From assembly GCA_965198225.1 (NCBI GenBank), contig CBDAOY010000007.1, forward strand, positions 672,001-736,000: 64,000 bases of DNA, in the 5' to 3' direction. Shown piece after piece: positions 8,923 through 63,428 of this stretch. The number at the start of each line of letters is the position of its first letter. Positions within the stretch are counted from its first letter, which is position 1. The position numbers and the translations under genes are program-made. The notes below the pieces were generated by a model, which did not search any database, was not told the origin of the DNA, and saw only the letters and a program-made list of their open reading frames with translations. The DNA comes from Terriglobia bacterium (GTDB taxonomy: Bacteria > Acidobacteriota > Terriglobia > 20CM-2-55-15).

Positions 8923-10332
8923 GTGATCGTAAACCGGTTCGTCTTCGTCTGCTCGCTCTGTCTCATGAGCTGGGCCGCGCTGCTGTGGGGGAATTCTCTG
9001 GGTCCGCCGGCGGACCGGTCCGGAGTGTCTGGCGTGACATGCAGCACGTCGGGTTGCCACAACGATTTTCCCGCGAACGTCGGTGGAGGCAGTGTCTCGA
9101 TCACCGGACTGCCTACGGAGTGGACCCCCGGTGTGACCTACCCGATGCAGGTGTCGGTCTCCCATTCCGGCGCCAGCCTGTACGGGTTCCAGATGACAGC
9201 CGTGGATTCCAACGGAGCACAGGCAGGCGGATTCGTCATGGGTACTGGGACGGAGGTTCAGCCCGGCTTGGCCGGCGGGAACACGCTCCAACACATGCAG
9301 CACTCCTTCGCCTCGACGAACAGCACGTTCTCTTTCAGCTGGACCGCCCCGGCAACCTCATCGACCGGTGCGGTGAAGTTCAACGCGGCAGCCAACGCCG
9401 CCGACGGGAGCTTCAGCCGGTTCGGGGACTTCATCTATTCCACGGACACCACCGTTTCCCCTCAGACGACCGGCAATGGAACCCCGCAGACGACGTTCTA
9501 CTTTCCGCAGATTGCTGACGGCACACTCGCGGGTGGGTTCTTCAAGACGACCATATTTGTCGACAATCCAGCTTCCTCCGGTTCGGCCAACGTAACCATT
9601 ACGTTCACGACTTCGGCCGGAAACCCGTTCAACATTTCTTTCGTGGATTCAGACAATCAACCGATCGGGTCCGGGAACGTGGTCACCGTGGCGGCCCTGG
9701 CCGGCGGCCAGAGCCGAAAGCTGATCTCGACCGCGGCGGTGCCCCTGGCGGTCGGATTTGCCACGGTTACCGCCGATGCGGAAATTGTTGCGAGCGCGGT
9801 GTTTTCCCAGTTCTCCGGTACTCCCGGCCAGGGTACGCTGCTAAGCGAGGCGGCGGTTATTTCCGCAGACACCGCGTTGAACCAGGCCATATTCGTCGAT
9901 GAAAGCGGGAATTTCAGGACTGCCCTCGCCTACGCCAACCCCTCAGCGACGGCGTCGGCGAACATCACCTTCAACCTCATGACGCTCAACACAGACACTG
10001 TGCCGGTATTGACGGTCGCCCGCTCGCTTCCCGCGAACAATCACACCTCGATTTTCGTCGATGAGCTGTTTGCAACGGATGGCCAAACAAATCCGCTGGC
10101 CGTCGGACACGTGGGGACGATGCAGGTCGTCAGCGACACCCCGCTGGCGCTCGTTTCCCTCAGGTTCGAGGGTTCTGTGTTCACGAGCGTTCCCCCCTTC
10201 AGCCTGGCGTCGCTCATCCCCGGACTTGAATCATGGACGCGACCGGTGGAAGCTTGGGTCCAGCAGCGCCCGTGGCTGTCGCCGCTGGCCTCGTTGGCCC
10301 GGCTGCTCGGAACACTGCGGATCGGCGGCTAG
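8923..10332 (+). CDS. Secreted protein: Reeler/choice-of-anchor-V-like domain with CxxxxCH, plus a beta-rich C-terminal domain
   Basis: Signal peptide; TCSTSGCH, YGFQMTA, FSWTAP, AANAADG...GDFIY; then a YFPQIADG-type domain. Confidence 0.7.
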   Translation: MIVNRFVFVCSLCLMSWAALLWGNSLGPPADRSGVSGVTCSTSGCHNDFPANVGGGSVSITGLPTEWTPGVTYPMQVSVSHSGASLYGFQMTAVDSNGAQAGGFVMGTGTEVQPGLAGGNTLQHMQHSFASTNSTFSFSWTAPATSSTGAVKFNAAANAADGSFSRFGDFIYSTDTTVSPQTTGNGTPQTTFYFPQIADGTLAGGFFKTTIFVDNPASSGSANVTITFTTSAGNPFNISFVDSDNQPIGSGNVVTVAALAGGQSRKLISTAAVPLAVGFATVTADAEIVASAVFSQFSGTPGQGTLLSEAAVISADTALNQAIFVDESGNFRTALAYANPSATASANITFNLMTLNTDTVPVLTVARSLPANNHTSIFVDELFATDGQTNPLAVGHVGTMQVVSDTPLALVSLRFEGSVFTSVPPFSLASLIPGLESWTRPVEAWVQQRPWLSPLASLARLLGTLRIGG

Positions 10333-12796: not shown

Positions 12797-13620
12797 CGAT
12801 GTCGGAGACCAGGTGCGACGACCCGATCGATTGGCCGGTCCGGAAGGCCTTCGATCGTCATGCTTCGGACTACGACGCCTGGTTTTCCCAGAACCCCATT
12901 GCCGTCAAGCTCCGGGGAAGGATCTGGGAAGTGATGGATCGTGTTTTCGACCCCGGGCAGAGGGTCCTCGACCTGGGATGCGGGACGGGCGAGGATGCCG
13001 TTCACCTTGCCGGCCGGGGGGTGCGCGTTCGAGCGCTAGACGTTGCTCCGGCCATGGTTGACCGTCTCACCCAGAAAGCCCGGGGACTGGAACTCGACGA
13101 CCTGATCAACTGCACGGTCGCTGACGGCCGCTCCCTCAACCTTCCGCCCGGATCGCTGGACGGGATCTACTCGAACTTCGGCGCTGTCAATTGCGTCGCC
13201 GACCTGGAGTGGCTTGGAGAGCTTGGTCGGCGGGCACTCCGGCCTGGAGGCCGGATGATCATCATCGCGATGGGACGTTGCTATCCGCTGGAGATCGCCG
13301 TGAACCTTGCCCGAGGTCGCCTCCGTCCGGCGCTGAGGCGCTTCCGTTCGCCGGCGTCTGCGATTGTTCGGGACGTCGAGTTCCCGGTGCACTACCATTG
13401 CTTCAGAGTTCTCAGGAAGGCGCTGGCGGAAGGGTTCGTCCTGGAGCAACGTCGGGGGCTCAACCTGTTGCTGCCGGAGCCGGGGCTGGAGCACCTGGCG
13501 CAGCGTTTTCCCCGGACGTTCCGCGCCCTCCAACCCATCGATTCCGTCCTTGGGCGATCGTGGCTTTTTTCGGCGATGGGCGACCACGTGTTGTCGGTGT
13601 GGAAAGTTCGTAGCACCTGA
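12793..13620 (+). CDS. Class I SAM methyltransferase
   Basis: VLDLGCGTG, DGIYSNFG, LRPGG. Confidence 0.88.
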   Translation: MTMSETRCDDPIDWPVRKAFDRHASDYDAWFSQNPIAVKLRGRIWEVMDRVFDPGQRVLDLGCGTGEDAVHLAGRGVRVRALDVAPAMVDRLTQKARGLELDDLINCTVADGRSLNLPPGSLDGIYSNFGAVNCVADLEWLGELGRRALRPGGRMIIIAMGRCYPLEIAVNLARGRLRPALRRFRSPASAIVRDVEFPVHYHCFRVLRKALAEGFVLEQRRGLNLLLPEPGLEHLAQRFPRTFRALQPIDSVLGRSWLFSAMGDHVLSVWKVRST

Positions 13621-13633
13621 GCGGTTCAAAACG

Positions 13634-14313
13634 ATGAGCGACAAGAAACTCATCCTCCTCTACAACCCGCCGTCGGAGTTCTACGCGATGCCGCTGGGGC
13701 TGCTTTCGGTCGGCTCGGCTGTTCACGGCACTGCGGGCATCAACGTGCGGATCCTCGACTCGCGAATCGATCCAGACGCGGAGGAAGTTCTGCTGGAGCT
13801 GGCGCCCCAGGCAAGCTGTGTCGGGATGACGGTGTTTTCCGGCCCCCCCATCGGGCCGGCACTTGCGCTGGCCCGGGCAGTGAAGCGACAGAACCCCGGA
13901 CTCCCAGTGGTTTGGGGCGGCTGGCATCCGTCGATCTTTCCCGAACAGTGCATCGATAGCGGGGAGGTGGACGCAGTCGCGATCGGACAGGGTGAAGGGA
14001 GCTTCGCCGAACTCGTGGCGGCGATCGACCGCCCGCGGGAGTGGGAGGGAATCGCCGGCCTGTGCGTCAAGACTGAAACCGGAACGAAACGCACTCCACC
14101 CCGACCACTCGCCGACATGAACAGCTTTCCACCGGTTTGCTACGAGTTGCTGGATGTCGAATCGTACTTTCGGCACAAAGGGCACCGCCAGATCGATTAC
14201 AGCTCGTCGCGAGGTTGCCCCTACCGCTGTACCTTCTGCGCCGATCCCATTATCTACAAGAGCAAGTGGACGGGATTGAAAGCCGCGCGCACGGTCGAAG
14301 AATTGATGAAGAC
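13634..14313 (+). pseudogene. B12-binding radical SAM protein, N-terminal ~225 aa only (cut at the junction)
   Basis: PLGLLS, VVWGGWHPS, GQGE and SSRGCPYRCTFC. Family-like sequence stops about 25 aa after CxxxCxxC and the frame runs on into antisense of the next gene. Confidence 0.8.
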
Positions 14314-14345
14314 TCGGCCCGCGATTGAAAGCCGCGCGCACGGTC
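14274..14345 (+). repeat. 23-bp direct repeat GATTGAAAGCCGCGCGCACGGTC at the gene-truncating junction
   Basis: Identical copies at 14274-14296 and 14323-14345. Confidence 0.9.
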
Positions 14346-15748
14346 AGGGCTGTGGGAGTAACGTCGATGTTGCCCGTCGGCACGTTCGAGACCACGCCGC
14401 GCTTGATGTCTGGTCCAGCCGCGATGAATGTCGCACGGATGTCGGACGGGCTGGTGCTGCCGTGCCCCGCGACGCCCGACGTGAACACCTCTCCCTCGTA
14501 GCCGTGCTCGTTGACGGCGTCCGACCAATTTGCGCTGGTGAGGATGTCCGCCGTTCTCCGATGACTCCACCCTACGGCCCCGTATGCCACGGTCCCCGGC
14601 AGGTGGCCGAAATCGGATCCGTCCGCCTCCGCCGGGGTGAATACAGGTCCGATCCAGTCCGTCTGTTGGAGCACGCGAACGATGTCCGCAATCCGTTCCG
14701 GTCCTCCTTCCAGGACGTGGATAGCGTCCCCGGCCACCACGACGTCCATCGAGCCACCCGACTCCTTGAGGCCTTCGTCGACCAGAAGGCCGGAGAGCGA
14801 GGTGTTCCCTGTGCGGGTGGTGAAACCGTGATCCGATGTGACGAGGATGTTGGTGACTTCGGCCACGCCACGCGCGGCCAGGCCGTCCAGCAGTCGTCCG
14901 ATCTCCTCGTCGACAGCCCTGATGACGGCGAGCGTCTCGGGTGCACCGATCCCCCTGAAGTGGGTCGTTCCGTCCGGCTCGGTCAGCCACGCGGCGAGAA
15001 CGTCCGCATCGGCGAGATCGAGGCCAATCCGCAGCAGTGCGTCCACTGCTCGCGCCACAAGACCGACGGACGACCCATCCGCGCGAGGGTCAGGAAGAGG
15101 GCCGAGCTCGGCAGCCACGACCGTTCCGAGGGAGTCCGGTATGGTGAATGAATGGTGCACGAGCCCGGCCCCGGATCCGCGGTGGTTCATCAGGGTTCCC
15201 GAGCCGGTCGAACCGGAGGACGCGGCAAAGTAGACCAATCCCTGTTCAGCCAGGAGCTCCCCGAGTGATGGTGCAGTGAGCATCTCTCCGTCGGTCGCCT
15301 CGTCGATGGTTCTGAGGTCTGCCGCGTTCCCGGCGTCCAGTACCCGTTCGGGATCCACGTCCCGGAGGTAGACGGAGTTACCCATCATCCCGTGCCCGGA
15401 GGGATAACGCCCGGTGAAGATCGAGGGCCCGTTCACGCGCGTCACGGTGGGGAACACGGCGTGATGCGCCAGGCCCCGAAAGCCGGCGTCCGCGAGGGCA
15501 TTCAGTCGGGGCATGAGGTCTTCGGTCACGTAATCGGGCCTCAGGCCGTCCACCACGAGTATCAGGACCCGGCCCTTCCCCGCGCCAGGGTCGCCGCAGC
15601 CGGCAGCGATGACCGCCACCGTCATTAGGAGCCCCAAGACGATCGAGGAGCGTTTCTTGAGGTAGGCGCTCACGCTGGTAATCGGACCGGTCGTGCCTCG
15701 ATGACGGGATCGTGGGCGGCCCGAGGCCACCTGATGGAGGACATTCAC
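14346..15748 (-). pseudogene. Alkaline phosphatase/nucleotide pyrophosphatase-phosphodiesterase family lipoprotein, C-terminally truncated
   Basis: Lipobox AAGC; VVDGLRPD, FPTVTRVN, EPDGTTH, TSDHGF, GHGS, NIDVTPT. Sequence becomes unrelated at the repeat. The true start may be downstream of 15748. Confidence 0.8.
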
Positions 15749-15751
15749 GCT

Positions 15752-17074
15752 TCAATAAACTGACAGGTAGTGATCCAACTCCCAGGGGTGGACCTGGGCG
15801 ATGTAAGTCGCCCACTCCGATCGCTTGGCCTCGATGAACTGGTTGAAGATGTGATCGCCCAGGGCGGTCCGGATCACGTCGTCCTTTTTCAGGGATTCGT
15901 AGGCTTCCCGGAGGTCGCCCGGCAGGTTGTCGATCCGGTAGTGACGGCGTTCTCGGTGGCTCATCTTCTGGATGTTCTTCGTGATCGACGGTCCCGGATC
16001 GGTTTCTTCCTCGATTCCCGACAACCCGGCCGACAGGATCGCGGCAAACGCCAGGTAGGGGTTGCAGGAAGGGTCGGGCATCCGTAACTCCACGCGCGTC
16101 CCCTGGCCCCGTCGAGCCGGCACGCGAATCAGAGGGTCCTTGTTCTGCTCCGACCACAGAACGTTCGTTGGAGCGTCGTAGCCGGGGACCAGCCGTTTGT
16201 AGGAATTCACGAGCGGGTTCGTGATCACACAGAAACCTTTCGCGTGACGCAGCATGCCACCGATGAAGTTCAGGGCCGTTTTGCTGAGCTGGTAGTCTCC
16301 CGCCGGGTCGTAGAAAGCGTTTCGTCCTTCTTTGAAGACCGACAGATGGATGTGCAGGCCCGAACCGGCCTGACCGAACACTGGCTTGGGCATGAACGTC
16401 GCGTGAAAGCGGTGCTGCATCGCGACGTAGCGGACGAGGAAACGGAACGTACCGATGTTGTCGGCAGTGGTCAACGCGTCGTTGTCCTTCAAGTCGACCT
16501 CGTGCTGTCCCGGGGCCAGCTCGTGGTGCGATGCCTCGACTTCGATGGCCATCCCTTCCATCGTCTTGACGATGTCCCGGCGCGCATCTTCGCCCGAGTC
16601 CTCGGGGGTCATGTCGAAATAACTGCCGTAGTCCTGGGTGTCGGTCGTTGGGTCGCCCGTGGCCTGCTTGATGAAGAGAAAGAACTCGATCTCGGGACCG
16701 GCCTGGAAGGTGAGCCCCATCGCGCGAGCCCGGTCGAGGACGCGTTTCAGCGTCAGCCTCGGGCAGCCTTCGAACGGAGTGTCGTCGGGGTTGTATACGT
16801 CGCAGATCAATCGCGCGACGCGCTCGCCATTCCGGTTCCAGGGGAAGATGCGGAAGGTTTCCGGATCAGGTTTCAGCAGCTTGTCGGTTTCCTCCATCCG
16901 CGTGAAACCCTGGATGGCGGAACCGTCGAAGAGAAGCTGTCCTTTCAGTGCTTTCTCGAACTGGTCCGTCGGAACTTCGACGTTTTTGATGACACCCAGG
17001 ATGTCGGTGAACTGGAGCCGGAAGAACTGGACGTTCTCGTTTTTCGCTAGGTCGAGGACTTGTTCTTCGTTCAT
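15752..17074 (-). CDS. Glutamine synthetase type I-alpha-like paralogue with altered active-site residues
   Basis: Colinear with B. subtilis GlnA (RLQFTDILG, SHHE.APGQHE, ATFMPKP, VHPWE) but reads FDGSA, GQAGSG, PGYDAP, QNKD. Confidence 0.9.
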   Translation of the reverse strand: MNEEQVLDLAKNENVQFFRLQFTDILGVIKNVEVPTDQFEKALKGQLLFDGSAIQGFTRMEETDKLLKPDPETFRIFPWNRNGERVARLICDVYNPDDTPFEGCPRLTLKRVLDRARAMGLTFQAGPEIEFFLFIKQATGDPTTDTQDYGSYFDMTPEDSGEDARRDIVKTMEGMAIEVEASHHELAPGQHEVDLKDNDALTTADNIGTFRFLVRYVAMQHRFHATFMPKPVFGQAGSGLHIHLSVFKEGRNAFYDPAGDYQLSKTALNFIGGMLRHAKGFCVITNPLVNSYKRLVPGYDAPTNVLWSEQNKDPLIRVPARRGQGTRVELRMPDPSCNPYLAFAAILSAGLSGIEEETDPGPSITKNIQKMSHRERRHYRIDNLPGDLREAYESLKKDDVIRTALGDHIFNQFIEAKRSEWATYIAQVHPWELDHYLSVY

Positions 17075-17179
17075 TGGCCGATAGAATTCGGGATCGGAGA
17101 CTGAACTATCGGGAACAGGTGATTGGGTCTCCGTCCCGGAATTACGCCGCCAGGCTCCCGAATGATAACATAGGCCCTT

Positions 17180-19675
17180 ATGTCGACCCGCTCGGAACTC
17201 AAGCTAAGCATTGAAGATATCCGAACTCGGTTCTTCGCCGATCCGGTGAATTTCAAGGCCGAAGAGGCTCTGTGCGCGATCATGGACAACGCGCTGGGTC
17301 ACTTGTGGAAATCCCAGCAAAACAGGGCGGCTTATGCGGTCATGGCGGTGGGGGGGTATGGTCGTCGGGTTTTTCATCCAAACTCGGATCTCGACCTCTT
17401 GATCTTCTTCACCGATCGGGTTGTCGAGGAGATCGTCAACGATCTCCTCACGCCGTTGTGGGACCTGGATTTCCGGGTGGGTCACCAGGTCCGCGAATCC
17501 TCCGATTTCAGACACTTTGAACCGGAGCAGATGGAATCCTACACCGCCTTTCTGGACGCCCGTTTTCTCTTCGGCGAAGCCGCGGTTGCGGATTCCTTCA
17601 CCGACGAGGTGCTCGGTGGGCTGCTGCGTCGAAGCCAGCGGCGGCTCCTCCGGGCGCTCGTCGACATGAAGGATGTGAGGTATGAGCGCTACGGCGGCAC
17701 CGTTTTTCAACTGGAGCCCGACCTCAAGGATGCTCCCGGGGGGCTTCGCGACTACCACTGGACTCGCTGGGTTACCCGCGTCCTCGAACAGAGTGACGAC
17801 GATCCCCAGGCCGAAGCCGTCGATTTTCTCCACCGACTGCGCAACTACCTGCATTTCATGTCCGGCCGGGATCAGAACGAGCTTTCCTACGAATATCAGG
17901 AGCGAATCGCTGTGGAACTGGGGTACGTGGACTCAGACCGGGGCGAAGCGGCCGAGCACCTGATGCGCGACTATTTCCTCAGGGCGGAAGAAATCGCTCG
18001 GAGTTTGTCGAAATGGGAGAGCGAGGTGGTCGGGCCGCCCGACTTGCTGACTGTAAGGGAGCAGCCCCGCGATCAGCAAGAGATCATGGCGGTGTTCCTC
18101 GAGGCTCACCGCAGAAAGATGACGATCGATGCCGGCACACTCGGCCGCGTTCGAGACGCCCTCGCGAGCAGCACGGCGGATGACTTTGCTGACGAGGTCT
18201 ACGGCCAGACCGTGCTGGATATGATGCGTGACCGGCGCGGCATCTACCGGACTCTGCGACTCATGCATCAGGTCGGTGTGCTCGGCCGCATCTTTCCGGA
18301 ATTCGAAGAAATCCGGTGTCGCGTGATCCGGGATTTTTTCCACAAGTACACGGTTGATGAGCACTCGCTGATCGCGATCCGTAACATAGAGGAGCTGGGA
18401 GCCGAACCAGGCGCGCGCGGGGCTCGACGGGGTCTGGGAGCCATTTTGGCCGAGATGGAGAGCCCGGAGTTGCTTCTGCTGGCTCTACTGCTCCACGACA
18501 TCGGGAAGTCGGCCCAGCACCCCGAGGGCGATCACGTTTGTTCGAGCGTGGAGGGAGTGGATGCCGTGCTCGAGCGGGTCGGTCTGTCGGACGCGGAACA
18601 GGAACGAGTCCGGGCGGTCATCCGGAACCACCTCGAGATGTCCAAAATCATCCTGCGTCGAGACCTCGCCGACCCGAACGTGATTGCGCAGTTTGCCAAG
18701 CTGGTCGGAACCCGGGAAGACCTCAGGATGCTGTGCCTTCTAACCTACGCCGACATGAAGGCTGTCAGTCCTGAGGTTCTGACGTCGTGGAAAGAGGATC
18801 TGCTCTGGCAGCTCTACGTCGAGACCTACAACCATCTGCTGCATGGCTTCGCCGACGATCGTTACATGCAGGAGGAAGATCTCGAGGGTGAGATCAATGG
18901 AATCCTCCGATTCGTTCCCTCCCACGCCGGTGTCGCCGCTCTGCGGAGTTTCCTGGACGGCGTTCCTCGCCAGTACCTGAGGACGACACCAAAAGACCAG
19001 ATAGCCAGGCACTTCGAGCAGTACCAGAAACTGTCGGAAGAGGTTGAGATGGTGATGCACGTGGCCGGGCGAGACGGTTTCCACGAGATTCTGGTGATGA
19101 CCCCGGACCGCCCGTACCTGTTTTCGCGAATCACCGGCGTCCTGTCTTCCTACGGCATGAACATCCTTCGGGCTCAGGCTTTCGCGAACCGCAGTGGAGT
19201 GGTGTTCGACCTCATCACGTTCGAGGACGTCGATGAACGGCTCACCAAGAACCCGTCCGAGGTCGATCGGCTCCAACAAGTGATGGAAGCCGCCGTTGCC
19301 GGACGAGTCGAAGTCGAAGAACTGCTGCGTCGCAAGACGACCAGTGTCGTCTACCGCCGGACAAAGGGTGTCGTGCCGACGGGGGTCCACTTCGATGACG
19401 AATCTTCGGAGCGGTGCACGATCCTCGAGATCTCCGCCCACGATGACATCGGTCTGCTGTCCCACATCTCCGGCGTCTTGTCCGACCACGGCTGCAACAT
19501 CGAGGTGGCTTTGATCACCACCGAAGGAACCCGCGCGATCGACGTCTTCTACCTGACCAAAGATGATGCACGGTTGTCGCGCGAACTCCAGAATGCGCTT
19601 GAGCGGGATCTTTCCCCGGTTCTCGAGCCCCTCTCTCGATCCGTTGAAACGACTCCAGGACCGAATTCGCGGTAG
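17180..19675 (+). CDS. glnD: [PII] uridylyltransferase/uridylyl-removing enzyme
   Basis: NTase AVGGYGR...SDLD; EPDLKDAPGGLRD; HKYTVDEH; HD domain LLHDIGK; two ACT domains. Confidence 0.93.
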   Translation: MSTRSELKLSIEDIRTRFFADPVNFKAEEALCAIMDNALGHLWKSQQNRAAYAVMAVGGYGRRVFHPNSDLDLLIFFTDRVVEEIVNDLLTPLWDLDFRVGHQVRESSDFRHFEPEQMESYTAFLDARFLFGEAAVADSFTDEVLGGLLRRSQRRLLRALVDMKDVRYERYGGTVFQLEPDLKDAPGGLRDYHWTRWVTRVLEQSDDDPQAEAVDFLHRLRNYLHFMSGRDQNELSYEYQERIAVELGYVDSDRGEAAEHLMRDYFLRAEEIARSLSKWESEVVGPPDLLTVREQPRDQQEIMAVFLEAHRRKMTIDAGTLGRVRDALASSTADDFADEVYGQTVLDMMRDRRGIYRTLRLMHQVGVLGRIFPEFEEIRCRVIRDFFHKYTVDEHSLIAIRNIEELGAEPGARGARRGLGAILAEMESPELLLLALLLHDIGKSAQHPEGDHVCSSVEGVDAVLERVGLSDAEQERVRAVIRNHLEMSKIILRRDLADPNVIAQFAKLVGTREDLRMLCLLTYADMKAVSPEVLTSWKEDLLWQLYVETYNHLLHGFADDRYMQEEDLEGEINGILRFVPSHAGVAALRSFLDGVPRQYLRTTPKDQIARHFEQYQKLSEEVEMVMHVAGRDGFHEILVMTPDRPYLFSRITGVLSSYGMNILRAQAFANRSGVVFDLITFEDVDERLTKNPSEVDRLQQVMEAAVAGRVEVEELLRRKTTSVVYRRTKGVVPTGVHFDDESSERCTILEISAHDDIGLLSHISGVLSDHGCNIEVALITTEGTRAIDVFYLTKDDARLSRELQNALERDLSPVLEPLSRSVETTPGPNSR

Positions 19676-19677
19676 CC

Positions 19678-22491
19678 ATGGAACCCCGGGACCTCCTGCT
19701 CGCCCCAGAAGTCGATACCGAGGAGTTGGACGGCCTGTACAGGCGTCACGGATTCCGGTCGCCCACGGAGGCCGACCGGAACCTTCAGGAGATTGCCGGC
19801 AACGAGACGGATCGCCGGAACCTGGCGCGGTCAATCGATCCGATATTCACGGCGTTCGGATCGGCTGTCGATCCCGACACCGCCATGTCGAACCTGGAGC
19901 GCTATGTTTCGGAAATCGGAAATCGCTCCGAGTTCTTCGTGCGATTGGCCGAGGATCCCTCCCTGGTCGAGCTGCTGGCAAGCGCTCTCGGAGGCTCTTC
20001 GTTCCTTGCCGGAATTCTGATTCGGAACCCCGAGTACCTTCATGGCCTCCGAGCGGACCTGGAACGCGGGCCGAAGTCTCGTGAGGATTTCATCACCCGA
20101 GCCCGGGAATCGGTTCGAACCTTCGATGACCAACGCGATCGGCTGAACGCTCTTCACCGCTTCCAGCGTCGGGAGTTATTGCGTATCGGCGTTCGCGACC
20201 TTTCCGGAGAATCCCATGTGCGGGACATCACCCACGAGCTCTCCTGGCTTGCCGACGCGATCATACAGGTCGTGTTCGACGAGGCCTGGCGCGCGATGGG
20301 GGACAGGCTCGGAGAGAACTTCGAGTTTGCGGTGATCGCAGTCGGAAAACTCGGTGGGGAAGAGCTCAACTTCAGCTCCGACATCGACATCATCTACATC
20401 TATTCCGATGATGCCTACGCCGAGCTGGCGACGAAACTCGCCCGGCGGATAAACCAGGCACTGAGCGAGCCGACCGGCGAAGGAATGTTCTACCGTGTCG
20501 ACCTTCGTCTCAGGCCGGATGGAGGTCGGGGACCTATGGCCTCGTCGCTGAGGGCACTCCAGACCTACTACGATTCCTGGGGTGAGACTTTCGAACGGCT
20601 GGCTTTGTCGAAGGCCCGGTTCTCGGCCGGCCACCCCACCCTGGGAGAAACTTTTCTGAAACTGGTGGGACCCTTTGTCTACCGGCGATACCTGGACTAC
20701 GCGGCGATCGACGAAGTGCGGGACATCAAACGTCGCATCGACTCGCAGGTCGGATCGTCCGGCGAGCTGGAATTGAACGTGAAGCTGGGACGGGGCGGCA
20801 TCCGAGAGATCGAGTTCTTCGTCCAGGCCATACAGGTTCTCTACGGCGGCGAAATCCCCGGAATCCGGGTGAAAAGCACGCTGACATCCATCGATCGCCT
20901 CGAGGATGCTCTGCTGATCGAACGAGCCGTGGCCCGCCGGCTCCGGGACGCCTATGTGTTCCTCCGCAACGTCGAACACAAACTGCAGATTGTCGACTTC
21001 CGTCAGACGCACAGCCTGCCAAAGGACCGCGATGAACTCGCTCGGTGTGCCGCCCGGATGCAGATGTCCCTGCCGGCCTTCGAATCCACCCTCGATGCGC
21101 ATCGGAATTCGGTCCATGACGTGTTCGGTGATCTGTTTTCGAGGGGCTCGGCCGTCGAGGAAGGTCTTGCCGCCACCGTCCATCGTTTTGTACGTGGCGG
21201 GATGGACGATCGAGAGGCGCTCGAATGGCTCGAGGGGATGGGCTTTGAGCCGCGGCAGGCCCTGGACAACCTGCGGACACTGCGCGACGCACCCGCCTTC
21301 GGTCGTTCACCGACCCGCATGAAAAACCTGCTCGCCAACGTCGTCACGCCGCTGCTGGAAAACGCCTCGAAGCTGATCCGGCCTGGCCGAGTTCTGAATG
21401 GCTTTGAACGTATCACTTCTGAGGTCGGCGCTCGTGAAGCGCTATACACATCCCTGCTGGAGAGTCCCCGCTCGATTCCTCGCCTGGCACAGTTGTTTGC
21501 CCTCAGCGACTACCTGTCTGAAACGCTTTTCCGGAAGCCGGGAGCGGTCGAGTTCCTGATCGACGACAGCCTGTTGTCGCGCAAGATTCCACAACCCATC
21601 GAGAGCAGGAGCCGGCGTATCCACGAGTTCTACGTCGGCGCCCAGCATCTGTTCGGAATAATAAGCCGCAGGCAGGCGAGCCGACTGATGAGTCGTTTCG
21701 CTGAAAGGGAACTCCGGAATCGGCTGTCGGTCGGCGATTCGGTTGCGGTGTTTGCTCTCGGCAAGTTCGGTGAACGAGAACTGAACTATCGCTCCGACCT
21801 GGACGTGATCGCGTTTTATGAAGGGGACTACGCCGCCGCGTGCAGGATGGTGGAAGGGCTAACCGAGAGTCTCGGCGACGAGTTCCAGCTGGATCTGCGG
21901 CTGCGTCCCGAGGGACGGAAAGGCTCTCTCGTCTGGAACCTGGAGAGAACTGCAGCATACCTTGGGGACAGGGGAGAAACCTGGGAGCGGATGGCATGGA
22001 CCAAGGCACGATTTATCGCCGGTGACCGGAACCTGGCCGACCAGTTTGCGCCTCTCATCGACAATTTCGTTTACGGGCGAAGGTTCGGAACGGCCGAAGT
22101 CGATCAGATGAAGAGAATCCGCAAGAGAATGGAGCGGGAGCTCGCCAAAGAAAAGGAAGGGAGGTGGGATCTGAAACTGGGGAAGGGTGGGCTGGTCGAT
22201 CTGGAGTTCCTCGCCGAGTTTCTGCAGATTCACAAGCACATCCGGATACCAAACACCGCCCTTGTCCTCAAGCGCGCCGGCATTTCCGCGGAGCTGATCG
22301 GCGACTACCACTTTCTCCGCGACGTCGAGTCCATGCTCCGACTCTGGTCGCTCCACGCGAGTACGCAGATCGATGAGAAGGATCTTCCGGCGCTGGAGCT
22401 GATGCTGAGTCTGGAGAGTTTTCCGGAAACCTATGAGCGGGTGACGGAAAGAATTCGTGAAGCTTTTGAGGCGTATAGAGGAGAGGTGTAG
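19678..22491 (+). CDS. glnE: Glutamine synthetase adenylyltransferase/deadenylase
   Basis: Two GlnE NT domains: GKLGGEELNFSSDID...VDLRLRPDG and GKFGERELNYRSDLD...LDLRLRPEG. Confidence 0.93.
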   Translation: MEPRDLLLAPEVDTEELDGLYRRHGFRSPTEADRNLQEIAGNETDRRNLARSIDPIFTAFGSAVDPDTAMSNLERYVSEIGNRSEFFVRLAEDPSLVELLASALGGSSFLAGILIRNPEYLHGLRADLERGPKSREDFITRARESVRTFDDQRDRLNALHRFQRRELLRIGVRDLSGESHVRDITHELSWLADAIIQVVFDEAWRAMGDRLGENFEFAVIAVGKLGGEELNFSSDIDIIYIYSDDAYAELATKLARRINQALSEPTGEGMFYRVDLRLRPDGGRGPMASSLRALQTYYDSWGETFERLALSKARFSAGHPTLGETFLKLVGPFVYRRYLDYAAIDEVRDIKRRIDSQVGSSGELELNVKLGRGGIREIEFFVQAIQVLYGGEIPGIRVKSTLTSIDRLEDALLIERAVARRLRDAYVFLRNVEHKLQIVDFRQTHSLPKDRDELARCAARMQMSLPAFESTLDAHRNSVHDVFGDLFSRGSAVEEGLAATVHRFVRGGMDDREALEWLEGMGFEPRQALDNLRTLRDAPAFGRSPTRMKNLLANVVTPLLENASKLIRPGRVLNGFERITSEVGAREALYTSLLESPRSIPRLAQLFALSDYLSETLFRKPGAVEFLIDDSLLSRKIPQPIESRSRRIHEFYVGAQHLFGIISRRQASRLMSRFAERELRNRLSVGDSVAVFALGKFGERELNYRSDLDVIAFYEGDYAAACRMVEGLTESLGDEFQLDLRLRPEGRKGSLVWNLERTAAYLGDRGETWERMAWTKARFIAGDRNLADQFAPLIDNFVYGRRFGTAEVDQMKRIRKRMERELAKEKEGRWDLKLGKGGLVDLEFLAEFLQIHKHIRIPNTALVLKRAGISAELIGDYHFLRDVESMLRLWSLHASTQIDEKDLPALELMLSLESFPETYERVTERIREAFEAYRGEV

Positions 22492-22553
22492 GTGCGGTCT
22501 ATGACCGCACATTGTGCCGATCCGAAGAGCGTGCGGTCATAGACCGCACCTAC
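22488..22553. repeat. GTAG-type REP doublet (family B) between convergent glnE and the PII gene
   Basis: GTAGGTGCGGTCTATGACCGCAC (22488-22510) and its exact reverse complement (22531-22553). The first copy contains the glnE stop codon. Confidence 0.88.
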
Positions 22554-22558
22554 ACACC

Positions 22559-22891
22559 CTAACTCACGTCCCGCTCACCGGTTCGTATGTTGTATCCCTC
22601 TTCCACGGGCAGGACGAACACCCGACCATCCCCTATTTCTCCTGTCCGGGCGGTCTCGATAATCGTCCTGATCGTGTCGTCGACCATCTCATCGGGAAGG
22701 ACGAGGTCGATCATGATCTTGGGCAGCAGCGTCACGCTGTATTCCGTCCCCCGATAGATGGCTTTGTGGCCTTTCTGGCGGCCATGGCCCCTGACTTCCG
22801 TCACGGTCAGCCCGGAGATATGGATCTTTGCCAGGGCGTCCTTGACTTCCTCGAGCTTGTTCGGACGGATGATTGCCTTCAGCAGTTTCAT
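22559..22891 (-). CDS. glnB: PII nitrogen regulatory protein (GlnB/GlnK family)
   Basis: AIIRP, GRQKG...YRGTEY (Tyr51 present), TGEIGDGRVFV, IRTGE. Confidence 0.9.
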   Translation of the reverse strand: MKLLKAIIRPNKLEEVKDALAKIHISGLTVTEVRGHGRQKGHKAIYRGTEYSVTLLPKIMIDLVLPDEMVDDTIRTIIETARTGEIGDGRVFVLPVEEGYNIRTGERDVS

Positions 22892-22957
22892 ATAGACGTG
22901 CCTCCGGTCTAACGGAGTCGAACCGCGGTTCCTCCTCGAAGGGACCGCGGCCCACTC

Positions 22958-22984
22958 TATAGTGACCTGTTACAGGCCACTATA
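22958..22984. repeat. Collapsed family C footprint (TAGTGACCTGTTACAGGCCACTA) overlapping the glnA stop
   Basis: The two ends of the 31161-31436 element joined head to head with no interior. Confidence 0.7.
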
Positions 22985-24395
22985 TATCGTAGTACAGTTC
23001 GAACTCATGTGGATGGGGCCGCAGACGGACCGCGTCCACTTCGTTCTCTCGCTTGTACCCGATCCAGGTGTCGATCACGTCCTTGGTGAATACGTCGCCT
23101 CTCAGCAGGTACTCGTGATCCGCCTCAAGCGCGTCCAGAGCCTCTTCCAGGCTGCCCGGTGTCGAGGCGATGTCCTTCTTCTCTTCCGGTTCCAGGTCGT
23201 ACAGATCTTTGTCGATCGGGTCCGGAGGCACGATCTTGTTCTCGATTCCGTCCAGGCCGGCCATCAGCATCGCGGCGAATGCGAGGTAGCCATTGCTCGA
23301 CGGATCAGGGATCCGGTATTCGAGCCGCTTCGCTTTCTCGCTCTTGGAGTAGGCGGGGATGCGCACGCACGCGCTGCGGTTGCGCTGGGAGTAGATCAGG
23401 TTTATCGGGGCTTCGTAGCCCGGGACGAGACGCCGGTAGGAATTGGTAGTCGGCGCGCAAAATGCCAGCAGTGCCGGGGTGTGCTTGAGCAGGCCGCCGA
23501 TGTAGTACTGGCAGTTCTTGCTCAAGTCTGCGTAATTGCCGGGTTCGTAGAACTGGTTCTGACCCTTCTTCCACAGGCTCTGGTGGACGTGCATCCCGGA
23601 TCCGTTGTCCATGAACACCGGTTTCGGCAGGAACGTGGCGGTCTTGCCGCGTCGTCGTGCGACGTTCTTCACGACGTATTTGTACATCTGTAGCTTGTCA
23701 GCCATACGGGTCAGGGTGTCGAAGCGCATGTCGATTTCGCACTGGCCCGCCGTCGCCACTTCGTGATGATGGACTTCGACTCGAACACCGATACTCTCGA
23801 GCGTCAACATCATCTCGGAACGGATATCCTGGAGCGAGTCGGTGGGAGGCACCGGAAAGTAGCCTTCCTTGTAACGCGGCTTGTAGCCCAGATTTGGGTT
23901 TTCCTCGCGGCCCGTGTTCCAGAACGCCTCGACGGAATCGACGTGGTAGTAGCCCCCTGAAGGGCCCTGGTCATACCGGACGTCATCGAAAATGAAGAAC
24001 TCCGGCTCCGGACCGAAGTAGACCGTGTCGGCGACCCCTGTGGCCTCCAGATGACGCTCGGCCTTCTGTGCGATGTATCTCGGGTCGCGGTTATAAGACT
24101 CACCCGTCACGGGATCTTGAACGTTACAGATTATGTTCAGGGTTGGGACCTCGGTGAATGGGTCCAGGAAAGTTGCGTCCGGGTCCGGAATCAGAAGCAT
24201 GTCGCTCTCTTGGATCTTCTGGTAGCCCCGGATGCTGGATCCATCAAAGCCGAGACCCTCGTCGAAGATGTCTTCGACCAGCTCTGCCGTAGAGATCGAA
24301 AAGTGCTGCCACATCCCGAGCAGGTCGACAAAGCGCAGGTCGGCGACTTTGACGCCTTTCTCCCGAGCGAACTCTATTACCTCTTTGGGCTTCAT
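22980..24395 (-). CDS. glnA: Glutamine synthetase type I-beta (adenylylatable)
   Basis: [48 protein letters not shown], adenylylation loop DKDLYDL. ATG at 24395 follows GGAGG. Confidence 0.96.
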
Positions 24396-24481
24396 GGTGG
24401 GTGAACCTCCGTGAATCAAACGAGTTTTAGTGAACGAAGACTGGCGGGTCCTGGGGAACCGGTTTTCCGCCAAAACGCGCT

Positions 24482-24755: not shown

Positions 24756-24845
24756 CAAAGAGCGGGGTCCCTCATCTGGAGTTCGCTACGGCCGCATTAG
24801 CCTCGCAAAGAGCGGGGTCCCTCATCTGGAGTTCGCTACGGCCGC
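24756..24845 (+). repeat. Exact 40-bp direct repeat, period 50
   Basis: CAAAGAGCGGGGTCCCTCATCTGGAGTTCGCTACGGCCGC at 24756-24795 and 24806-24845. Confidence 0.9.
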
Positions 24846-30033: not shown

Positions 30034-30325
30034 GACCTGTCGTTTGCTGACGTTTCTGCTTGACGAAGCACCCGTCGGGGGGAGGTAGCCTTTCTATTCG
30101 CCTACCTGTCGTTTGCGGACGTTTCTGCTTAGCAAAAACCCGGGGGCAGGGCAAGCCCTGTCCCCCTCACAGTGGCTCGCTCGCGGACCGTTCCGCTTCA
30201 CGACGACTCCCACGCGACACGCTTACGCTCATCGACCAGGTACCGTGCGAGAAGAAACGTGAGGGGGACAGGGCTTGCCCTGTCCCCGGGTGTTCGCTTC
30301 AGCGGAAATGTTAGGGAACGACGAA
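30034..30325. repeat. REP-like family A inverted doublet with duplicated flank
   Basis: Cores at 30142-30165 and 30264-30287 in opposite orientation. The flank ACCTGTCGTTTGC.GACGTTTCTGCTT occurs twice (about 30035 and 30104). Confidence 0.85.
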
Positions 30326-63364: not shown

Positions 63365-63428
63365 GTGAGGGGGACAGGGCTTGCCCTGTCCCCGGGTGTT
63401 GGCTGAGTAGAAATGTTACGGAACGACT
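63365..63428 (+). repeat. REP-like family A copy
   Basis: GTGAGGGGGACAGGGCTTGCCCTGTCCCCGGGTGTT. Confidence 0.85.

Follow-up and report, generated by a model that had tools for sequence, protein, structure and literature searches.

The window, a 64,000-nucleotide (nt) stretch of contig CBDAOY010000007.1 from a Terriglobia bacterium (Acidobacteriota), contains a gene for a glutamine synthetase (GS) of the type I alpha subtype (GSI-alpha), which lies head to head with glnD and glnE and has an altered active site. Three of its features, an Asp in place of the flap Glu, an acidic residue at position 313 and a Gln in the Tyr loop, are rare or unique among the GSI-alpha sequences compared and are fixed in the clade to which this protein, here termed the GS variant, belongs. 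Judging from its sequence, we consider it moderately probable that the GS variant is a working accessory GS isoenzyme that escapes GlnE and whose ammonium or feedback behavior is altered. The gene and the landmark residues of its product, in the protein's own numbering, were as follows.

15752..17074, minus strand: GSI-alpha-type glutamine synthetase of the variant clade (P0001, 440 amino acids), assigned from the open reading frame (ORF), domains and model TIGR00653
Landmark residues of the GS variant: A53, Q55, A236, D300, K312, D313, Q369

Identity and active site of the GS variant

An earlier note on this DNA had described the ORF as a GSI-alpha paralogue, and analysis of its product confirmed a real, full-length GSI-alpha gene on the minus strand. 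A Gln-synt_N domain (PF03951, residues 14 to 96) is followed by a Gln-synt_C domain (PF00120, residues 103 to 436), and the protein could be aligned collinearly from end to end with PDB entries 4lnf and 4lni (E = 5e-159), the latter being the Bacillus subtilis GS according to PMC7948447 (papers are cited here by such numbers). The score with the TIGR00653 GlnA equivalog model was 517.8 bits, above the cut-off of 429.15; four other clade members scored 509 to 534 bits and four canonical acidobacterial GSI-alpha proteins 555 to 580 bits. Alignment with the neighboring beta-subtype enzyme (GSI-beta) indicated the absence of the ~25-residue beta insertion, as in the alpha subtype, and the presence of a Gln where the GSI-beta protein has the adenylylation Tyr of DLYDLEPEE, so that both the insertion and the Tyr397 motif of the GlnE-adenylylated subtype are missing. 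Scores of 315.4 bits were obtained with the gamma-glutamylputrescine synthetase model NF045547 (GGputSyn; cut-off, 650) and of 335.5 bits with the type III/GmaS-like model TIGR03105 (cut-off, 469.6). By model score and architecture, the GS variant is classed as a type I GS and, from the missing insertion and adenylylation motif, as one of the alpha subtype; on the model scores, it falls outside the gamma-glutamyl-polyamine and GmaS families. The word paralogue was a loose one, as the genome has two GS genes in total, of which this is the sole GSI-alpha, and it did not arise by recent duplication.

Alignment with 4lnf detected all five of the substitutions listed in the earlier note, FDGSS to FDGSA, GVNGSG to GQAGSG, PGYEAP to PGYDAP, QNRS to QNKD and NIY to NIQ, and a further change, IEG to IQG, which was absent from that list. 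The same alignment bore out the statements that the metal ligands are intact and that Asp50 is retained, which sets the protein apart from GmaS and Haloferax GlnA-2 as these are described in published accounts. Catalytic residues were scored against the 18 positions in Table 2 of PMC8394153 (S. typhimurium numbering). Fourteen are kept (D50, D64, E129, E131, Y179, E212, E220, G265, H269, H271, R321, R344, E357 and R359) and four are altered (S53A, N264A, E327D and R339K), and the position of Y397 is occupied by Gln. The GS variant falls short of the strict 18-residue criterion for a type I GS, and members of its clade typically keep 16 of the 18. This test is too strict for GSI-alpha, because N264 and S53 vary in GSI-alpha generally, as judged from 190 GSI-alpha genes, taken from other phyla or genomes and from metagenomes, that served as a wider background. 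Every metal and phosphate ligand of the GS variant is kept save the equivalent of B. subtilis R316, and the flap still presents a carboxylate. The equivalent of B. subtilis Arg62 is also kept (R59), with an Asp instead of a Glu as its flap partner.

A clade with recurrent active-site changes

The best 120 database matches to the GS variant consisted of seven clade clusters (P0002 to P0008), with 75 to 98% identity, and 113 canonical sequences, with no more than 66% identity. Inclusion of further cluster members gave a clade alignment of 16 sequences with a mean column identity of 83%. In a tree of 70 GSI-alpha sequences, 13 variant sequences formed one clade (SH-aLRT, 100; stem, 0.44) that nests within the acidobacterial GSI-alpha radiation; the tree came from a quick search without bootstrap, and its deeper forks were poorly separated. 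The clade was delimited by identity and by this tree.

Ala236, an acid (Asp or Glu) at position 313 and Gln369 were present in all 16 clade sequences, and Ile or Val at position 129 was likewise shared. D300 was found in 15 of the 16, with an Asn in P0008, and K65, I129 and L186 are among the further members of the core set. A53, Q55 and K312 were confined to the cluster of this species (P0001, P0002, P0123 and P0124); position 312 is an Arg elsewhere in the clade, but a Pro in P0006 and P0130. The metal, ATP and glutamate ligands were invariant in 16 of 16 sequences, with the exception of the R339 equivalent (R, K or P). None of the 113 canonical matches had a flap Asp, an acid at 313 or Gln369, and three had Ala236. 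The 190-gene background contained 47 instances of N264A, 29 of S53A, 3 of E327D, 1 of R339K and 13 of R339V, and neither an acid after R339 nor a Gln at Y397 was detected (0 of 190 each). One background locus, L187, comes from an unpublished genome (G422), and no result rests on it.

These comparisons sorted the changes listed in the earlier note into two common polymorphisms, two or three species-private changes and a remainder fixed in the clade. The description of the active site as rewired was overstated for N264A and S53A; the other changes are rare or unseen in the background. Similarly, the Ala/Asp/Lys/Gln pattern for which orthologues were to be aligned recurs at A236, D300 and Q369 and is private to the species at K312. 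The core set recurs in a monophyletic clade on which purifying selection is strong, so that private decay, named in the earlier note as a refuting condition, does not account for the substitutions. A flap Asp was also found at locus L140, in a Firmicute-type GS from another phylum encoded on a contig of 47% GC; an ANTAR regulator gene follows it and carB adjoins it, and this locus is an ordinary glnA context.

The positions at which the clade differs from canonical GSI-alpha were then related to the active site. A position was considered clade specific if the clade residue was at least 85% conserved and no more than 3% frequent in the 113 canonical sequences, which was true of 21 of the 440 positions. 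Seven of the 21 (65, 129, 186, 236, 244, 300 and 369) lie no more than one residue from a catalytic position, a set comprising 52 positions, which represents a significant enrichment (one-sided Fisher test, p = 0.007); seven lie within six active-site loops (p = 0.02). The corresponding near-catalytic counts in three control clades of similar depth were 0 of 12, 1 of 15 and 0 of 3, a comparison that is rough because these clades were chosen by eye from the motif table.

Enrichment of clade-fixed changes beside catalytic residues would be in keeping with a changed substrate. The GS variant could be a gamma-glutamyl ligase whose preferred substrate is a small amine other than ammonium (methylamine, hydroxylamine or ethanolamine, for instance), in which case the ammonium pocket would be widened by the shorter flap Asp together with the Asn-loop Ala; we regard this as unlikely. 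The changes include ammonium-site positions as given in PMC8998196 (S53, N264 and E327), hydroxylamine or ethylamine is accepted by some GS enzymes (PMC7948447), and a patchy accessory distribution (2 of 34 genomes of the order) is frequent among catabolic genes. However, Asp50', Tyr179 and Glu212 are kept, whereas at least one of Asp50, Tyr179 and the flap Glu is lost in the amine ligases characterized in the sources available. N264A is widespread in ordinary GSI-alpha, the scores with the two amine ligase models lie far below the cut-offs (315 against 650 for GGputSyn and 335 against 469.6 for the type III/GmaS-like model), and no gene of a downstream pathway (for an amidase, NMG synthase or gamma-glutamyl hydrolase, for example) was common to the two genomic contexts read.

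Constraint was examined by comparison of the window genome (G000) with the second genome of the order that carries the gene (G013). The GS variant is 78% identical to its G013 orthologue, with a nonsynonymous divergence (dN) of 0.139; the values for GSI-beta and GlnD between the same two genomes were 0.426 and 0.413. No dN/dS ratio is given because the synonymous divergence (dS) was saturated. The GS variant is under stronger constraint than its neighbors, and its low dN may in part also reflect a later transfer between lineages. Contigs from three independent studies had 0, 0 and 1 differences in 1,323 nt, the single difference being R85C; in one of these contigs, the adjacent phosphodiesterase gene had 11 differences over a stretch of about 260 nt. 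Furthermore, the GC content at third codon positions (GC3) of the GS variant was 0.80, the highest among the local genes. Clearly, the gene is being maintained. The alternative of an extra copy that is decaying or without function would fit the lack of the gene in 32 of the 34 genomes and the three additional species-private changes near the active site. Against this stand an intact frame, a dN three times below those of glnD and GSI-beta, the identity or near identity of contigs from the three studies, the high GC3 and the conservation of the clade at 75 to 98% identity with invariant catalytic residues, and we consider decay barely credible.

The distribution of the gene was narrow. Within the order, which equals the family, the clade was detected in the two genomes G000 and G013, and none of the three same-genus genomes (94 to 96% complete) had it; these three have one GS gene each and retain glnD-glnE-PII-GSI-beta, while G013 has two GS genes. 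No further clade members were detected in 400 sampled genomes of the class or in 401 sampled genomes of the phylum, which yielded only canonical GSI-alpha proteins of 52 to 56% and 58 to 64% identity, respectively. Scans of metagenomes and genome contigs, for which the search patterns were too general, also returned only canonical GSI-alpha proteins, of no more than 62% identity. The GS variant is an accessory gene.

The glnD-glnE-PII-GSI-beta locus

The genes and regions surrounding the GS variant were as follows.

14338..15748 (end approximate), minus strand: alkaline-phosphatase-superfamily phosphodiesterase gene (PF01663, E = 1.2e-37)
17075..17179, no strand: 105-bp intergenic region separating the divergent genes for the GS variant and GlnD
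17180..19675, plus strand: glnD, PII uridylyltransferase, 831 amino acids (TIGR01693, 535.4 bits against 519.4; HD and ACT domains)
19678..22491, plus strand: glnE, GS adenylyltransferase/adenylyl-removing enzyme, 937 amino acids (NF008292, 500.6 bits against 487; two GlnE domains)
22559..22891, minus strand: PII protein of the glnB/glnK type, 110 amino acids (PF00543, E = 4.6e-30), downstream of GSI-beta
22980..24473, minus strand: canonical GSI-beta glnA, 497 amino acids (TIGR00653, 670.1 bits)

The earlier note had named glnD and glnE correctly and had placed them head to head with the GS variant. As the GS variant, glnD, glnE, PII and GSI-beta genes adjoin one another, the entire GS/GlnE/PII/GlnD circuit lies within 9 kb. 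When aligned with the GS variant, the GSI-beta protein was found to have 18 of 18 catalytic residues, the ~25-residue insertion and the DLYDLEPEE adenylylation motif, in agreement with the claim that the neighboring glnA keeps all of the equivalents. In G013, the GS variant is again head to head with glnD and lies beside a homologue of the gene at 8923 to 10332, so that the GS variants of G013 and of the window occupy the same syntenic slot. These were the two clade contexts read. The glnD linkage, whose conservation the earlier note had put up for checking, held in two of two contexts, both from that one family. No glnD gene was found within 1.5 kb of the GSI-alpha genes at 29 canonical loci from the phylum or at 15 loci from two other families of the class, 9 of the latter being head to head with GSI-beta.

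The linkage with glnD raised an alternative in which the GS variant is mainly regulatory, a GS-fold chaperone or glutamine/glutamate/ATP sensor whose target would be a transcription factor or a partner in the PII cascade, with catalysis reduced or secondary. This role would be analogous to that of the feedback-inhibited GS with GlnR and TnrA in Bacillus, and the altered E flap, D50 loop and R316 loop are GlnR-contacting elements in Firmicutes in the account of PMC9249791. The variation of the catalytic Arg equivalent between R, K and P and the contrast in glnD association (two of two contexts versus 0 of 29 canonical phylum loci and 0 of 15 loci of other families) also point in this direction. 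However, all metal ligands and the other phosphate-binding arginines are invariant in the clade, which a pure sensor would not require, and two contexts, both from one family, make a weak case for a functional linkage. Furthermore, the promoter-proximal motif of glnD is unchanged in genomes that lack the GS variant. We consider a mainly regulatory role decidedly improbable.

This motif, GAATGATAACATAG, is located at positions 17160 to 17173 and ends 6 nt before the ATG of glnD; the distance is 6 to 7 nt across loci L094, L095, L096 and L097. Its core, GATAACATA, is invariant in four of five family genomes and has one A-to-C change in the fifth (G001), and the motif is present upstream of glnD with or without the GS variant. 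It may be a -10-like promoter element that gives rise to a nearly leaderless glnD mRNA. Neither a sigma-54-type promoter (the window as a whole had 33 matches, fewer than the 46.5 expected) nor a sigma-70-type consensus was detected in the spacer between the GS variant and glnD. The palindrome TGCCT-N7-AGGCA had 0 matches, and no Rfam match was obtained within the window.

Several other features of the region were observed. A plus-strand ORF of 132 amino acids at 22514 to 22912, between glnE and glnA, is an antisense shadow of the PII gene and not a gene. In G013, glnE is split into two genes (L094, 14477 to 18424) for proteins of 531 and 742 amino acids, the second with an ACT-like domain. 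The long AT-rich region upstream of GSI-beta contains an exact 40-nt direct repeat (24756 to 24795 and 24806 to 24845) with a period of 50. Three copies of the 15-mer GGGGACAGGGCTTGC are present, one of them inverted (30151 to 30165, 30264 to 30278 and 63370 to 63384), and it is possibly part of a dispersed repeat.

On the downstream side, the phosphodiesterase gene begins 3 nt past the stop codon of the GS variant. It is outside the conserved unit, being absent at the G013 locus and present at another location in G002 and G003. The region from 13364 to 15748 contains a radical SAM class-B ORF (plus strand, 595 amino acids) and the phosphodiesterase ORF (minus strand, 762 amino acids) in an antisense overlap of 1.7 kb. 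Homologues cover only residues ~87 to 317 of the former and 10 to 470 of the latter, and outside these parts each ORF is a shadow of its partner. The radical SAM gene is therefore truncated and abuts the 3' end of the phosphodiesterase gene at ~14312 to 14345. An exact 23-nt direct repeat (14274 to 14296 and 14323 to 14345) is present at this junction, and in four metagenome runs the contigs listed end or diverge at 14312 while others begin at 14345. The junction is either a rearrangement or an assembly join. A radical SAM/methyltransferase/phosphodiesterase inhibitor cluster, with the GS variant providing self-resistance, was considered and dropped, as neither the radical SAM nor the phosphodiesterase gene is found at the G013 locus; the radical SAM gene is a truncated copy from a family-wide paralogue array, and the phosphodiesterase gene is elsewhere in sister genomes, which also counters this idea.

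Proposed function and relation to known systems

Published work on GS assigns distinct roles to the altered elements. The Asp50' loop binds ammonium and removes a proton from it; the flap Glu shuts the site, makes contact with Asp50' and receives the proton that the tetrahedral intermediate gives up; Arg316 swings in for catalysis and is required; and in feedback inhibition of the B. subtilis enzyme, Glu304 and Arg62 lock bound glutamine (PMC9249791, PMC10799026). Glutamine inhibition is abolished, with catalysis unharmed, in an archaeal GS without the Arg62 partner (PMC10799026). In enzymes acting on other amines, which are far more divergent, Asp50, Tyr179 or the flap Glu has been lost (PMC7948447, PMC8394153, PMC8998196). 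Adenylylation does not regulate GSI-alpha in the accounts of PMC10799026 and PMC10349072.

We propose that the GS variant would be a catalytically competent ATP-dependent glutamate-ammonia ligase, a second isoenzyme beside the GlnE-controlled GSI-beta. The clade-fixed changes at or near catalytic sites, namely, flap Glu to Asp, an acid after the catalytic Arg (B. subtilis R316), the Asn-loop Ala, a Lys beside Asp64 and an Ile between two metal-binding Glu residues, would shorten or re-pack the lid formed by the flap and Asp50'. The most likely outcome would be a shift in the apparent affinity for ammonium or in the Arg62-Glu304-glutamine feedback lock, and an altered lock would bring altered sensitivity to transition-state inhibitors. 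As an alpha-type enzyme, the GS variant would not be switched off by GlnE, and the cell would thereby have a GS activity that the adenylylation loop does not govern. Its expression would be coupled to the nitrogen-sensing cluster through divergent transcription from the promoter region of glnD.

The proposal of a working isoenzyme is consistent with the intact Asp50', Tyr179/Glu212 ammonium pocket, fold and domain order, which are invariant across the clade, and with the retention, with the flap residue as Asp, of all three residues of which one or another is lost in the known other-amine ligases described in the sources available. Several observations weigh against it. The role of catalytic base has been assigned to the flap Glu, and a literature search found no report of a Glu-to-Asp GS. 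The key catalytic residue R339 (B. subtilis R316) is a Lys here and a Pro in P0006 and P0130, which is unexpected for the canonical mechanism. The clustering of clade changes at the active site (7 of 21, p = 0.007) fits changed chemistry as well as it fits changed kinetics, and the gene is dispensable, being carried by none of the three same-genus genomes. Lastly, the L140 GS would, from its context only, be its organism's main GS. The variation at position 312 (R, K or P) and the active-site focus of the changes leave the rival functions of amine ligase, sensor and inhibitor-insensitive back-up enzyme open. Even so, nothing was found that favors the sensor, pseudo-enzyme or amine ligase functions put forward in the earlier note over a working GS, as the ligands other than the R339 equivalent are invariant in 16 of 16 sequences and the equivalog cut-off is passed. 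The argument from the missing Tyr at the GlnE target was weak, since GSI-alpha is not adenylylated in the accounts available and canonical GSI-alpha proteins have F, S, A, N or W at this position. The literature search found no paper on a flap-Asp GS or on an acidobacterial GS together with GlnD and GlnE.

A further alternative is that the GS variant is altered at the target site of inhibitors and would be an inhibitor- or feedback-insensitive back-up enzyme that sustains glutamine synthesis when the main GS is blocked by high glutamine or by poisons (phosphinothricin, methionine-sulfoximine-like compounds, tabtoxinine or arsinothricin). B. subtilis Glu304 mutants reportedly resist methionine sulfoximine (MetSox) and glutamine. 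In the archaeal GS described in PMC10799026, losing the Arg62 partner is by itself enough to abolish inhibition by glutamine. In the GS variant, however, Arg62 is kept as R59, and no conserved inhibitor-biosynthesis or acetyltransferase genes adjoin it; the nearby radical SAM and methyltransferase genes are generic, one of them is truncated, and they are absent at the G013 locus. A literature search for E327D, E304D, E305D and E327A found no experimental link between a Glu-to-Asp change and resistance. A dedicated back-up role is in our view quite improbable. In a broader picture, the natural flap-Asp GS would form a GlnE-independent arm of the acidobacterial PII cluster, either as a feedback- or inhibitor-insensitive back-up that sustains glutamine synthesis while the main GS is adenylylated or poisoned or as a GlnD-linked glutamine/ammonium sensor of the GS fold, with the re-packed flap, Asp50' and R316 loops as the switch; this is a tentative possibility that we hold to be unlikely.

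With B. subtilis GlnA (4LNF/4LNI) and other Firmicute and archaeal GSI-alpha proteins, the GS variant shares the same five active-site loops, the Arg62 equivalent and the ligands for metal, ATP and glutamate. It differs from B. subtilis GlnA in Glu304 to Asp, Arg316 to Lys (species private), Ser317 to Asp, the Tyr-loop Tyr to Gln and Asn240 to Ala, and in its location in a GlnD/GlnE/PII cluster, which Bacillus lacks. The Bacillus enzyme has GlnR and TnrA as partners, whereas none are known for the GS variant, no search for a MerR-type GlnR/TnrA gene having been made. Canonical acidobacterial GSI-alpha proteins (Vicinamibacterales type) are 58 to 66% identical to the GS variant and have in common with it the PDPSCNPY motif and, following the Tyr loop, a basic segment, KMSHR..R; the variant clade is set apart from them by 21 fixed differences, 7 of them beside catalytic residues.

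Streptomyces coelicolor GlnA2/GlnA3, Haloferax GlnA-2, PuuA and GmaS resemble the GS variant in having the GS fold, changes at the ammonium site and an accessory position beside a true GS. These gamma-glutamyl-amine ligases are about 30% identical to GS and, as far as described in the sources available, lose Asp50, Tyr179 or the flap Glu; in RhGmaS, Asp50 is replaced by Ala and the flap Glu by Trp (PMC7948447). The GS of Methanothermococcus thermolithotrophicus (8OOL) is a feedback-insensitive, 2-oxoglutarate (2OG)-activated GSI-alpha in which, according to PMC10799026, a change in the lock between the Asp50 loop and the flap alters regulation while catalysis is kept. In that enzyme, the Arg62 equivalent is a Gly and a 2OG pocket is present; in the GS variant, Arg62 is kept and the flap residue is changed.

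A second acidobacterial GSI-alpha clade with an unusual site was observed in two other families of the same class (f7 and f12; L013 and L171 to L182). Its members are 52 to 56% identical to the GS variant and score ~445 bits with TIGR00653, and they have Val at the R339 equivalent, Asn for the next Ser and Asp or Glu for N264; most also have Ala for S53. Nine of 15 loci are head to head with GSI-beta within the flanks read. At the level of sequence, this clade is a second and stronger departure from the canonical GS site. A divergent GSI-alpha-like gene on a very long branch (L088, genome G032; 47% identical) was found beside a GSI-beta-like gene that is split over multiple frames.

The flap Glu and Arg316 (R339) have been treated as fixed parts of the mechanism of GS, and the variant clade has an Asp for the former and R, K or P for the latter, with strong purifying selection on the remainder of the active site. 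It represents a natural experiment on the tuning of ammonium capture, product feedback and inhibitor sensitivity by the flap. Should the GS variant prove insensitive to feedback or herbicide-type inhibitors, it would be of interest to enzymologists and to those engineering nitrogen assimilation. Acidobacteria are abundant in soil and their nitrogen control has hardly been studied; in some of them, the GlnD/GlnE/PII/GSI-beta cluster is accompanied by an alpha-type GS that should lie beyond the reach of the adenylylation loop.

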